64,000 bases of DNA from Truepera sp. (GTDB taxonomy: Bacteria > Deinococcota > Deinococci > Deinococcales > Trueperaceae): the NCBI GenBank assembly GCA_965218435.1, contig CBDCKW010000009.1, positions 1,152,001 to 1,216,000 of the forward strand. Reading direction: 5' to 3'. The notes beneath the pieces were generated by a model. The model had not been told where the DNA came from, made no database searches, and saw nothing but the letters and a program-made list of their open reading frames with translations. The translations under genes were made by a program, and so were the position numbers. Below are positions 9,173 through 31,908 of this stretch, one piece after another. How positions within the stretch are numbered: the stretch's first letter is position 1; each line of letters starts with the position of its first letter.

Positions 9173-10861
9173 ATGAAAAAAATGTATCTCGTGCTTGTGA
9201 CCGCCGCGGCGATAGGCGTGTCTTTGGTTTACGCTCAAAACGGCGAAAGCCTTTACAGACAGTGCGCGGCGTGTCACGGCACCCAGGGTGGCGGGGGCAG
9301 CGGTCCTGCCTTAGCGGGAGATCAACATCTCAAAAAAGCCCCTTACGTCATCAACCAGATTTTGCACGGTGGGGGTGGAATGCCTGCCTACGATTCGTTG
9401 TCGAACGCTGAAGTCGCGGCGGTGGCGAGCTATATCCGCTCGAGCTTCGGCAACAGCTACGGCAAGGTGAGCGCCAAACAGGTCGCCGCGCAGCGTGGTG
9501 GTGAGTCACAAGCTCAGCAAACCCAGCCTCAGAGCCAGTCGGCTACGCAAAAACAGGCAAGTTCAGCTCAGGACTCAGCACAAAAAACAGCACAAAAAAC
9601 GTCATCGCCCTTGGCTGCAACCAAAGCGGTTCAGCTCGAGGTTCCCAGCGAGATGGCGACGCCACCTTTTGACACCACGCGTACGCTCAACGTCCCCCAA
9701 GGCTTTAGCATTTCGGTTTACGCCCGCATTCCGAACGCCCGCTTTATGACGCTGACGCCTGAAGGCGACCTGCTCGTCTCGCAACCTGACCAGGGGAAAG
9801 TTTCGCGTGTGGTTGCAGGGAAGGGTGGAAACGCGACCGTCTCCGACTTTTTAACCGGACTGACCCGCCCTCATGATCTGGTCTTTCACCAGCTGAACGG
9901 TAAGACGTATCTGTTCGTCGCCGAAAGCGATCAGATTTCACGCTTTACCTATCAGAACGGTAACGCTACGAACGAGCAGGTGGTGGTCGCAGGCTTGCCC
10001 GACGCCGACCCGTACCGGCATCCGCTCAAATCTTTGGCGATTGACAGCAGCGGGACGCTCTACACGATGATCGCCTCGTCAACCAACGCCGGACCTGAAG
10101 ATTTAGCCGACGACCCCAAACGCGGCGCAATCTACACTTTTGACGCCAGCGCCACGGACGTAGACGCCACGGCGGGAGAACTGTTCGCTCAGGGACTGCG
10201 GAACGCTGAAGGGTTGGGGTTCGTGCCCGGTACCAACGAGCTGTGGGCTGTGATCAACGACCGCGACCAGATCGCCTACCCCTTTCACCGAGACTTTGAC
10301 GGCGACGGTTCGGACGATTACGGCAAGGTGCTCCAGAGCTACGTGGACAACCATCCGCCCGATGAGTTTACCCGGGTCGTTAAAGGCGGCAACTACGGCT
10401 GGCCTTTTTGTAATCCGTATCCCGATACTAAAAATAGCTACAACGACATACCCTTTAACCGCGATGTGGAGACCAATCCTAACGGGCAGCAACTCAACTG
10501 CAACCGAGCTGACCGGATCAACCGGGGGATTCAGGCGCATTCGGCCCCTCTAGGTCTGCTGTTTTTGCAACATACGGCGTTTCCGGGCGCGTATCAGGGC
10601 GCAGTGACGCCGCTGCACGGCTCGTGGAACCGCGACGTGCCGACCGGGTACAAGGTCGTTTACTTTCCCTGGCAAAACGGCGCACCAGGCGAGCAGCTTG
10701 ACCTCGTAACGGGTTGGCTGCCTGAGAACGCTCAAAACGGTGAGGCTTGGGGGCGTCCGGTAGATGCCGCTGTAGACGCGCAGGGCAACCTGTTTATCTC
10801 GGACGACTCGAGCGGCACCGTCTATAAGCTCAGTCCGGAAACCCAGAGCGCAAGCAACTAA
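9173..10861 (+). CDS. Secreted cytochrome c fused to a glucose/sorbosone dehydrogenase-type beta-propeller
   Basis: RBS AAGGAG; signal peptide; CAACH heme motif, GGMP; Q/S/T-rich linker; GLRNAEG, NYGWP, AHSAPLG, HGSWNR, GRPVD. Confidence 0.85.
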   Translation: MKKMYLVLVTAAAIGVSLVYAQNGESLYRQCAACHGTQGGGGSGPALAGDQHLKKAPYVINQILHGGGGMPAYDSLSNAEVAAVASYIRSSFGNSYGKVSAKQVAAQRGGESQAQQTQPQSQSATQKQASSAQDSAQKTAQKTSSPLAATKAVQLEVPSEMATPPFDTTRTLNVPQGFSISVYARIPNARFMTLTPEGDLLVSQPDQGKVSRVVAGKGGNATVSDFLTGLTRPHDLVFHQLNGKTYLFVAESDQISRFTYQNGNATNEQVVVAGLPDADPYRHPLKSLAIDSSGTLYTMIASSTNAGPEDLADDPKRGAIYTFDASATDVDATAGELFAQGLRNAEGLGFVPGTNELWAVINDRDQIAYPFHRDFDGDGSDDYGKVLQSYVDNHPPDEFTRVVKGGNYGWPFCNPYPDTKNSYNDIPFNRDVETNPNGQQLNCNRADRINRGIQAHSAPLGLLFLQHTAFPGAYQGAVTPLHGSWNRDVPTGYKVVYFPWQNGAPGEQLDLVTGWLPENAQNGEAWGRPVDAAVDAQGNLFISDDSSGTVYKLSPETQSASN

Positions 10862-17507: not shown

Positions 17508-17888
17508 CTAACGCTTAAGCCCCCGGAGCCGCGTCGCCGCCTCCGCCGCGCTGATGTCGCCGCGCTCGAGCAGCCCTAAAATGTCGGTGCGTTCCTCGCG
17601 GATTTCCTGGGTTTCAGGGGGCGACTCATAGCCGAGCGAACGGAGCATCCCGTCAAAGCGGCTGCGCACCGTCGGATACGACACGCCCAAAATCCGCTCG
17701 ACTTCTTTTAAGTTGCCGCGCACGCGCAGGAATAGCCGCATGAACTCGAGGTTTTCCGGGCTCAGCATGACGAATTCGTTGGGCGTAAAACGCCCTTCAA
17801 TCGCCACGCCGCTGGTGGGGCACTCGAGCCGGGTGACCTCTAACGGGTCGCCCGTGACCGGGCAACGGGTCGGCATCGGTAAACTCAC
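17508..17888 (-). CDS. DUF2089-family protein (Zn ribbon + HTH)
   Basis: CPVTG...LECP, GNLKEVERILGVSYPTVR, C-terminal LERGDISAAEA. Confidence 0.85.
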   Translation of the reverse strand: MSLPMPTRCPVTGDPLEVTRLECPTSGVAIEGRFTPNEFVMLSPENLEFMRLFLRVRGNLKEVERILGVSYPTVRSRFDGMLRSLGYESPPETQEIREERTDILGLLERGDISAAEAATRLRGLKR

Positions 17889-30075: not shown

Positions 30076-30102
30076 TTGACAAAATGTTGTAGTTGTACAA
30101 CA
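30076..30102 (+). promoter_or_regulatory. -35 box with adjacent palindromic operator of the XRE operon
   Basis: TTGACA at 30076; TGTTGTA-gttg-TACAACA at 30085-30102. Confidence 0.7.
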
Positions 30103-30133
30103 ATACGTTTTAGCTTTACGAACTGAGGTGACG

Positions 30134-30409
30134 ATGCCTGAAAACAAACTAACGATCTATAACCGGCTTTCCGTTTTACGGGCCGAACGCGGGCTGTCGC
30201 GGCAAGAGCTGGCGGACGCGGTGGGGGTGAATTATCAAACTATCGGTTACTTGGAGCGCGGCGACTACAACCCGAGTTTAGAGTTGGCTTTCAAACTGAG
30301 CGACTACTTCAGCTTGCCTATCGAGGTTATCTTTTCAACGAAGCCCCTCAAACCCTTGAGCGAAGCTCTGTATGAACTTCAAAATCACAGAGAGGAAAAA
30401 GTTGCATGA
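30134..30409 (+). CDS. XRE-family HTH transcriptional regulator
   Basis: LRAERGLSRQELADAVGVNYQTIGYLERGDYNPSLELAF. Confidence 0.95.
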   Translation: MPENKLTIYNRLSVLRAERGLSRQELADAVGVNYQTIGYLERGDYNPSLELAFKLSDYFSLPIEVIFSTKPLKPLSEALYELQNHREEKVA

Positions 30410-30495
30410 AAAAGCTTGGGTTTTTTGCTGGCACACTCGAGCCCAACCCACCTACCGAAGAAACCTCTTTTCGTACCTCGAGCGGAGCGCACTGA
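30406..30495 (+). pseudogene. 29-codon in-frame deletion remnant of a third membrane-protein paralog
   Basis: MKKLGFFAGT-LEPNPPTEETSFRTSSGAH*; ATGA and TGATG coupling at its ends; LEPN matches the WLEPN/WLEPD tails of the two neighbours. Confidence 0.75.
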
Positions 30496-30962
30496 TGCGC
30501 AAACCTCTAAGGAGGAGCGTTCGGCGGCTCTTAAGCGTCCTTGCGTTCGCGGCGCTGCTCCTCACCTTTTTTGCGGGCGCACTAGGCAGGGAGTTCGCCT
30601 GGTTAGCCCTTCTGCCGCCCATTCCTCTTATTTTTGTCATCATATGGCTGGATAGAGCGACGGCGAATATAGCGACCAAAAAAGTGAGTAAGCTCGATGA
30701 GCGGCAGAGACGTGTACATGACCAAGCCCACCGCTTGACGTACTGGGTTCTCTACCTTTATGCGTTCCTCGTGTTCTCTGTTTACACTTTTGACTTTGGC
30801 GACCTCAATATCCCTATAGCTTACGGGGTAGGGGAAACGACCTTCATCTTCAAACTACTCAGCATGAACATATATTTGTTCATTGTCTTGCCAACTCTGT
30901 TCGTGGCGTGGCTCGAGCCTAACCTTGTGCAAGAAGATAACTTCGCTAAGGAGACTGCATGA
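30495..30962 (+). CDS. Membrane protein with DERQ motif (DUF2178-like)
   Basis: About 4 TM helices, KLDERQ, AWLEPN; start at TGATG overlap. Confidence 0.75.
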   Translation: MRKPLRRSVRRLLSVLAFAALLLTFFAGALGREFAWLALLPPIPLIFVIIWLDRATANIATKKVSKLDERQRRVHDQAHRLTYWVLYLYAFLVFSVYTFDFGDLNIPIAYGVGETTFIFKLLSMNIYLFIVLPTLFVAWLEPNLVQEDNFAKETA

Positions 30963-31465
30963 AACGCCGTATAGTCTTATATCAGAGTAGCCGCCGCTTA
31001 CTCGTAATTGGCTTCATAAGCACTTTTGTAGCGAGTTTGATGCTGAGACTCTTAGCCGATAATCTTGACCAATTAGCTTTAGGTCTTCAAGTTTTGGGAG
31101 TATTCTTTGCTGCTGGTTTACTCAGATGGGGAAAGCCTCAAATCAAAAGCAAATTTATGGATGAGCGCCAGCGCGATATTCGTAACCGCTCGTACTTTAG
31201 GACTTACTTACTGCTCTCGGTTATATCCGTCAGTATTCCCATTGTCATGACTTTGCTGTTTGTCGTTGCTGAGCAGACTACAAGGGCGCTGATCGTTACG
31301 CTCCTCACCTCCTTACAGCGACCTGTGGATTTTGTAACGGTGTTTAGTTCGTTAGCACTTTTTGTGGTTTTTCTTCCTTGGGCAATGCTGGCGTGGCTCG
31401 AGCCCGACCCACCGCGAGACGAATCCGTTACTCTCAAGTCTGACTCGCGCATAACGAACTCTTAA
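30959..31465 (+). CDS. Membrane protein with DERQ motif, paralog of the previous gene
   Basis: About 4 TM helices, MDERQ, AWLEPD. Confidence 0.75.
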   Translation: MKRRIVLYQSSRRLLVIGFISTFVASLMLRLLADNLDQLALGLQVLGVFFAAGLLRWGKPQIKSKFMDERQRDIRNRSYFRTYLLLSVISVSIPIVMTLLFVVAEQTTRALIVTLLTSLQRPVDFVTVFSSLALFVVFLPWAMLAWLEPDPPRDESVTLKSDSRITNS

Positions 31466-31470
31466 AGCCT

Positions 31471-31908
31471 ATGTCACCACGCGTTCGGCCTCTGGCTATC
31501 TGCCTCATCTACCGTGAGGGTACGCAAGGCCGAGACCTCTTGGTGATGGAGGGTTTTGACGAAGCCAAAAAGTCTTGGTTTTATAGACCGCTCGGCGGCG
31601 GTATCGAGTTTGGCGAGCGGGGTCATGAAACGGTCAAGCGGGAGTTGCGTGAGGAAACCCGACAAGACCTGACCGATATCCGGTTTTTAGGTGTGCTCGA
31701 GAACCTGTTTACCTACGCGGGCACCCCGGCTCACGAACTCATGCTGGTGTATGAAGGGCGGTTTGCCGACCCAACCGTCTACGAACAAGACAGCCTGGAA
31801 GCCGTTGAGGATGACGGCTCGAGCTTTACCGCCCGCTGGTTGGCTGTAGAAGATTTTCAAAACGGCACCTTGAGACTCGTCCCTGAGGGTTTATCGGCCT
31901 ATCTCTAG
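31471..31908 (+). CDS. NUDIX hydrolase
   Basis: GGGIEFGERGHETVKRELREE Nudix box. Confidence 0.93.
   Translation: MSPRVRPLAICLIYREGTQGRDLLVMEGFDEAKKSWFYRPLGGGIEFGERGHETVKRELREETRQDLTDIRFLGVLENLFTYAGTPAHELMLVYEGRFADPTVYEQDSLEAVEDDGSSFTARWLAVEDFQNGTLRLVPEGLSAYL

Follow-up and report, generated by a model that had tools for sequence, protein, structure and literature searches.

A 29-codon reading frame joined at CTCGAG as the probable scar of a collapsed paralog in a membrane-protein gene array of Truepera sp.

Introduction

In Synechococcus PCC 6301 a deletion in smtB is flanked by the palindrome HIP1 (GCGATCGC) (Gupta et al. 1993, as cited in PMC13756078), and the HIP1 motif is conserved between species (PMC5861425). 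The title of Robinson et al. 1997, as listed in PMC6331805, speaks of similar excision frequencies in E. coli, which would indicate a non-specific mechanism. The immunity genes esaG and tipC form arrays that recombine at shared blocks of homology (Garrett et al. 2022, PMC9484751). In bacterial pseudogenes a microhomology of 2–11 nt is present at 43% of the small deletions and the spacing is biased to multiples of three (PMC6054270), and in Deinococcus radiodurans deletion between 438-bp repeats is RecA-independent and a single-strand-annealing route exists (PMC4627823).

Here we describe a short reading frame of Truepera sp., located in a window of 64,000 nucleotides (the whole stretch of DNA analysed; assembly GCA_965218435.1, contig CBDCKW010000009.1, positions 1,152,001 to 1,216,000). 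As in smtB, a gene may have been inactivated by the precise loss of a few hundred bases between over-abundant palindromes with one copy left, and CTCGAG, like HIP1, is conserved between species. Unlike the HIP1 case, the word has six bases, the genome (G000) is not cyanobacterial, the scar is natural and fixed instead of selected in the laboratory, one of the two sites is fixed by a protein motif and no cognate methyltransferase was identified in G000. With esaG and tipC the locus shares tandem divergent paralogs that are gained, lost and turned into mosaics by crossovers in conserved blocks, with occasional deletions outside of them. It differs from them as the block covers only about 17 bp near the 3' end and is common to otherwise unalignable genes, as the moving unit is a tail plus the next gene, and as an XRE regulator leads the array and no cognate toxin or secretion system is known. 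The pseudogene deletions are similar in joining short matches, and D. radiodurans in offering an annealing route, but these data are on small deletions or long repeats and involve neither an over-abundant palindrome nor a paralog array. The scar may be compared to a HIP1/smtB-like event set inside an esaG-type recombining array.

Results and Discussion

The array lies between truB and a NUDIX gene and its genes overlap without spacers. The following parts surround the short frame:

30076–30104, + strand: putative sigma-70-like promoter, TTGACA-17 nt-AACAAT (10 of 12 consensus positions)
30085–30102, no strand: inverted repeat TGTTGTA-N4-TACAACA, placed between the two hexamers of the promoter and recognizable by eye, with minor variation, in each of the 17 upstream regions listed
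30134–30409, + strand: XRE/HTH_3 regulator of 91 aa, first gene of the operon (PF01381, E 1e-13)
30495–30962, + strand: paralog A, a DUF2178-like membrane protein of 155 aa (DERQ ... AWLEPN) with three hydrophobic stretches
30909–30925, + strand: WLEP(D/N)P coding block, paralog A copy, consensus TGGCTCGAGCCCGACCC (each position 81–100% conserved over 42 junctions)
30959–31465, + strand: paralog B, 168 aa with four hydrophobic stretches (DERQ ... AWLEPD) and its WLEP block at 31394–31410

The promoter layout was recognized by eye upstream of the XRE gene in all 17 arrays listed, of 19, and the inverted repeat between its hexamers is likely the operator of this XRE family. Orthologs of the regulator are present in all six genomes of the genus and in 20 of the 128 family genomes (E<=1e-30). 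The membrane proteins resemble DUF2178 (PF09946) behind an HTH_3 regulator in their DERQ/DERE motif, size and hydrophobic layout, with scores below the Pfam cut-off: paralog B reaches E 0.054 and 14 bits, under the gathering cut-off of 22.8, and no DUF2178 match was obtained for paralog A or the 17 members of A2. Paralog A had no match in Pfam or NCBIfam, its nearest Atlas cluster is named DUF2178 (score 0.92), and the Atlas neighbours of the array proteins are DUF2178-like as well. Pairs of an HTH_3 gene and a DUF2178-like gene were found in many unrelated metagenome loci among those listed. The NUDIX gene (31471–31908) starts 5 nt after paralog B; in the genomes G004 and G005 a different gene follows the array, which matches G000:C9 near 895400.

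Between the regulator and paralog A a frame of 29 codons (30406–30495, + strand) reads MKKLGFFAGTLEPNPPTEETSFRTSSGAH followed by a stop. It overlaps the stop codon of the XRE gene as ATGA (30406–30409) and the start codon of the next gene as TGATG (30493–30497), and it carries CTCGAG at 30436 in frame 0 as codons 11–12 (Leu-Glu). Both couplings are as reported in the initial annotation of this DNA, and so are the AWLEP(N/D) ends of the downstream paralogs, which are encoded by tggCTCGAGcc at 30912 and 31397. The frame can be divided as follows:

30406–30435, + strand: scar head, the first ten codons of a membrane-protein gene of the P0021/P0013 family (9 of 12 residues as in P0021, 8 of 12 as in P0013)
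30436–30441, no strand: joint CTCGAG (Leu-Glu), the putative crossover microhomology; identity to G005 starts here (58 of 63 nt downstream), the DNA upstream being unrelated
30436–30495, + strand: scar tail, the C-terminal tail of a paralog, which carries the following gene's purine-rich leader and TGATG overlap (DNA 92% identical to the 3' end of G005 gene 3)
30436–30924, + strand: exchange unit shared with G005, tail plus next gene body from WLEP block to WLEP block (87% identity over 489 bp)

A CTCGAG inside a 90-bp frame is not surprising on its own, as one site occurs every ~490 bp. The joint gains its meaning from the fact that the DNA identity to G005 starts exactly at this position, where the initial annotation had placed the switch into the tail, and that the head belongs to a known family of full-length proteins. 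The head of P0021, MKKFGLFTGTLELSR, agrees with the scar head in 9 of 12 residues and has Leu-Glu at codons 11–12; P0021 and P0013 are full-length four-helix membrane proteins with DERQ and WLEPD. When 15 heads of the family serve as reference, none of the 4,406 long-ORF N-termini in G000, 28 of which start with MKK, scores as high as the scar head. In relation to a P0021-like parent 134 codons would be gone, among them every hydrophobic stretch, and the 29-aa peptide has none.

The closest parent is known as a protein only, and the presence of CTCGAG at its 5' end is deduced from the family and from the Leu-Glu of P0021. Gene 1 of G008 starts with MKQLVSPIGTLDLSR, has CTCGAC at codons 11–12 and matches the scar head at 22 of 36 nt. 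A search from this gene led to a family of proteins of 158–171 aa, in which the members from G072 and G074 (gene 2 each) carry an in-frame 5' CTCGAG at the equivalent Leu-Glu-Leu-Ser-Arg as well as a 3' site at WLEP, the 7-bp repeat CTCGAGC being present in copies 417 bp apart. Full-length relatives of the kind predicted in the initial annotation, with DERQ and WLEPD in P0021 and P0013 and with CTCGAG at both ends in G072 and G074, thus exist; a protein with the exact head plus tail of the scar was not among the results of searches with P0001, P0013 and profile A2, which returned family members only. A DNA pattern for the junction of XRE gene and head had 0 matches in metagenome contigs, and when G005 gene 3 was used to look for further short scars among proteins of at least 30 aa, three candidates came up, none of them scoring. 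A contig of run X3 matches up to 30418 and resumes from 31389 (depth 2; short side of 22 letters) and might represent the full-length gene. These comparisons support that the 29-codon frame is the scar of a collapsed paralog and not a conserved peptide, with a loss of at least ~134 codons.

The tail leads to other genes. In G005 the ortholog of paralog A is preceded by the full-length gene 3 (152 aa), which ends with AWLEPDPLTEETSFRISSGVR and starts with MNQSVWKRLLEP, not with MKKLGFF, and the full-length P0053, with a third differing body, shares 17 of 19 residues with the scar tail. As the same tail is found on three different heads, it cannot be tied to the head gene of the scar. The initial annotation had proposed that one third paralog lost its body between two CTCGAG sites; the collapsed paralog is supported, but since the tail sits behind two other bodies (G005 gene 3 and P0053), more than one gene may have been lost, or the sequence may have been replaced. 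The 489-bp unit is 87% identical to G005, compared to 76–82% for the flanking genes and 79% genome-wide; on both of its sides the DNA is unrelated, and the identity stops just past the next WLEP site. In addition, P0018 and P0019 share the body of paralog A up to WLEP (139 of 142 and 137 of 142 residues) and continue with another tail.

To describe the array among relatives we compiled 20 XRE-led arrays, each with one to five divergent paralogs; five of 80 metagenome loci (L082–L086) were taken as arrays. In 19 of them one to five junctions were detected, while the script detected none in the decayed array of G003, and CTCGAG is present at 36 of the 44 detected junctions. The comparison covered 42 junctions from 18 arrays after G003 (no junction), mg84 and the second junction of mg85 (contig ends) had been dropped. 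Of 821 cross-genome junction pairs, seven have just the upstream body in common, 12 just the downstream DNA and one both, so that sharing is one-sided in 19 of the 20 similar pairs. A tail similarity of at least 0.33 was found in 7 of the 12 downstream-sharing pairs and in 0 of the 7 upstream-sharing pairs (relatives are not independent). This pattern suggests that crossovers recur in the 17-bp WLEPDP coding block and that the moving unit is a tail plus the next gene with its own translational coupling. In one shared-tail pair ACAGAG replaces CTCGAG on one side, thus the exchange need not use the palindrome. The array family also exists with WTEP and other codons and in DNA lacking CTCGAG. Pairs of an XRE gene and a DERE/W-x-EPD membrane gene were seen in many unrelated genomes among the loci listed (L087–L161), several without CTCGAG, so that the protein motif would predate the excess of the palindrome.

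A bodiless tail directly behind the XRE gene is present in 4 of the 20 arrays, two joining at CTCGAG and two apparently elsewhere. The G002 scar is a 22-codon frame with a head resembling G005 gene 3 and its joint at CTCGAG; as CTCGAGCCC is the longest of the 13 repeats at least 200 bp apart in G005 gene 3, plain microhomology predicts this joint too. In the 22-codon frame of G004, whose head is like G005 gene 1, P-x5-W is kept before LEP, and the joint seems to precede CTCGAG by ~15 nt, at a GCCGAA shared with the head of that gene. In L086 the scar lacks a start codon and TGG is retained in front of the site. Both scars whose head gene has a known 5' Leu-Glu join at CTCGAG. Short frames at this position occur in three of six genus genomes; their heads and tails are unrelated, and every one can be traced back to a gene of full length. 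In-frame TAG stops were found in array genes of G002 (L027, two in one gene) and G003 (L028, one, at the Trp before LEP). Loss of array genes is common, by several routes.

CTCGAG occurs 144 times in the window compared to 22 ± 4.6 in shuffled sequences, and 9,883 times in the 4.8-Mb genome G000, where it is the commonest hexamer at 5.2 times the expectation of an order-2 Markov model; its density in G005 is 2.06 per kb. Between G000 and G005 it is conserved at 63% of its sites (median 30%), which is the first rank of 1,477 hexamers in this hexamer-level comparison. In long ORFs of G000, 52% of all Leu-Glu pairs are written CTCGAG and 76% of the coding CTCGAG sites are in the Leu-Glu frame. 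A join in frame is expected from this frame bias, and since both overlaps lie outside the lost segment, the operon coupling, which is preserved as the initial annotation stated, needs no special explanation and is not separate evidence for a guided mechanism. That the scar is tolerated may be due to this in-frame, coupled outcome.

Many of the other six-base palindromes are strongly avoided in G000 (GGCGCC, GGGCCC and TTTAAA at 1–5% of expectation), and its small contigs C6 and C8 have 5.2 and 3.2 CTCGAG per kb. An endonuclease of the XhoI family (PF04555), which a cutting and rejoining of the XhoI/PaeR7I type would require, was not found in G000 (100% complete) and occurs, with stops, in one of 128 family genomes, G001; an enzyme of other descent that recognizes CTCGAG may still be present. 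This broken gene is located behind an NPPY-type methyltransferase (L291, G001:C1:1094188-1097598), for which tblastx gave no match in G000. G000 has PF01555 and PF07669 matches, none assignable to CTCGAG. A non-coding element of ~246 bp, presumably a miniature transposon, is present in G000 in five copies that are 90–98% alike (G000:C9:467667-467912, 1257805, 1403596 and 2623614; C7:9965-10212), with CTCGAG in each terminal inverted repeat. An apparent excess of repeat ends touching CTCGAG in G000 (13 of 480 compared to 6.9 expected) was rejected, as a single small element with CTCGAG in its terminal repeats accounts for 8 of the 13.

For a genome-wide view of deletions, 2.42 Mb of G005 (121 stretches of its 4.02-Mb contig; same genus, 79% identical) were aligned to G000. 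Of 199 indels of at least 30 bp, 70 were well resolved and 129 failed the flank or ambiguity filter. One of the 70 runs from CTCGAG to CTCGAG. An in-register repeat of at least 6 nt was found at six of the 70, five of which use another or a partial word, one of them partly overlapping CTCGAG; if plain microhomology is taken as the null, in which CTCGAG is part of 1.5% of such repeats (~1.5–5% for repeats of at least 6–8 nt), one hit among six corresponds to P 0.09. The hit, L221, lies near 9373 in G005 (G000:C9 near 2830018), where G005 lacks 352 bp of a gene that is whole in G000 and a copy of CTCGAGCCAA borders the lost part at either end; it is the sole clearly intragenic deletion with a repeat of at least 6 nt. 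The gene may be DinB-like, judging by its His motif. CTCGAG is found within 12 nt of the joints of 7 of the 70 indels (3.3 expected, P 0.05) and 18 of the 199 (10.3 expected, P 0.02). After masking of the word, the count at sharp homology boundaries is 15 of 77 for CTCGAG and 79 of 1020 for pooled controls (odds ratio 2.5, P 0.004), an effect limited to 15 of 1,633 sharp boundaries and reached by 5 of 40 control words. The masked test replaced the raw enrichment at alignment ends (CTCGAG first of 184 words, 83 compared to 34), which was discarded for conservation bias, and the boundary tests are themselves biased towards CTCGAG because the best-conserved hexamer attracts alignment ends. The genome test is underpowered, as G005 is only 79% identical and many of the indels look like insertions. 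Near 17656 in G005 (L194) a 1,257-bp in-frame insertion near the residues LSDLRE, absent from G000, begins with Cys and is presumably an intein.

Could a collapse of repeats during assembly have produced the short gene? The WLEP blocks do make the array repetitive, but two separately assembled Logan contigs from runs X1 and X2 (30382–30629 and 30382–30919) run through the joint with 0 differences, starting 54 nt to its left, which argues against a late mis-join. X1 and X2 are one sample, possibly the source of the assembly, and do not stand for an independent strain; however, repeats of 6–17 nt are shorter than the 31-letter words behind Logan contigs, and similar scars occur in three other assemblies. 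We consider such a collapse extremely improbable. A selected small protein or regulatory leader peptide is also very unlikely, if less so. The intact start and stop, the purine-rich leader, the short frames in three of the six genus genomes and the entry as a called protein in NCBI/ENA would fit a functional product, but its 90% cluster has one member and the peptide has no hydrophobic stretch. The L086 scar does not even have a start codon. Conservation of the same 29 residues in relatives, named at the outset as the observation that would speak against a collapse, was not found, the three short frames having unrelated heads and tails, each from a full-length gene.

We also judge unlikely, though less so than these two, that a factor for recombination, nicking or methylation-linked repair recognizes CTCGAG, as has been proposed for HIP1 in cyanobacteria, and makes deletions or swaps more frequent than at a repeat of equal length. 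It would agree with the top conservation rank of the word, its first place at alignment ends, the odds ratio at masked boundaries, the 36 of 44 array junctions and three losses from CTCGAG to CTCGAG (this scar, G002 and L221). On the other hand, conservation alone draws alignment ends to CTCGAG, few sharp boundaries touch the word and control words score as high, one in six long-repeat indels is compatible with plain microhomology, the G004 and L086 scars appear to join upstream of it, the array family exists with WTEP, other codons and DNA without CTCGAG, and the XhoI family is limited to one broken gene in 128 genomes and absent from G000. A bolder version, which we find somewhat more doubtful still, sees CTCGAG as a protein-read recombination signal, the counterpart of HIP1, that the XRE operon has built into its WLEP codons to become an integrase-free cassette array. 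Units would swap across species carrying the previous tail and their own coupling, leaving the operon unbroken, and the 29-codon frame would be a mis-targeted event. In integron cassette arrays a single promoter serves a variable set of genes that are exchanged unit by unit; the Truepera array is similar in its one promoter and variable genes and differs in that the exchange point is inside a coding sequence. No integrase gene was seen beside the array in the ORF list of the window.

We therefore favour as the probable origin of the scar a head-to-tail fusion at CTCGAG by ordinary short-repeat recombination, for which abundance, codon use and the protein motif suffice without a dedicated mechanism. 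In this model the CTCGAG(C) at codon 11 would pair with a WLEP site in an illegitimate crossover, be it by slippage, by single-strand annealing or by uptake of foreign DNA with the help of homology, and 134 codons or more, possibly several genes, would be removed. The excess of CTCGAG across the genome would raise the odds of such a deletion, the matching word being very common, since with 52% of Leu-Glu pairs using it repeats arise in frame. The scar probably persists because translational coupling from the XRE gene to paralog A is kept at little cost, and the peptide itself probably has no job. The independent support for palindrome-guided deletion that the initial annotation saw here turns out to be weak, as the WLEP motif already dictates the 3' site, no distant repeat in G005 gene 3 is longer than CTCGAGCCC, two of four scars apparently join elsewhere, and 69 of the 70 resolved indels do not run from CTCGAG to CTCGAG.

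The least certain step of the model concerns function: the operon may encode membrane proteins for immunity or resistance, in an array that represses itself and turns over. PADLOC and NCBIfam gave no match for the array membrane proteins and Pfam none above its cut-off, and a fold search with the AlphaFold model of P0013 (pLDDT 76, helical) gave nothing in the PDB at E<=0.001. In G036, G044 and G008 the array is followed by peptidase-like or beta-lactamase-like genes. The assignment as immunity or resistance genes is a guess that could well be right but is the less probable outcome; it is suggested by the resemblance to immunity arrays, as small and divergent membrane proteins turn over quickly here behind a regulator that is likely an autorepressor.

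Conclusion

In summary, a 29-codon frame in an XRE-led operon of Truepera sp. is best read as what is left of a membrane-protein gene after a crossover at CTCGAG. Our literature search found nothing on CTCGAG in this lineage or on DUF2178, nor did we find in print a 17-bp coding block as exchange point with tails that carry the coupling of the next gene. We regard the shuffling of the array at WLEP as a more durable finding than the scar. With G005 gene 3 and gene 2 of G072 and G074, which carry both sites, a system is at hand for separating an effect of the palindrome from that of a repeat. CTCGAG-joined deletions make up a small share of all events, as abundance alone would predict, and the three natural losses from CTCGAG to CTCGAG outside the cyanobacteria indicate that such a word does serve as an end point of deletions.
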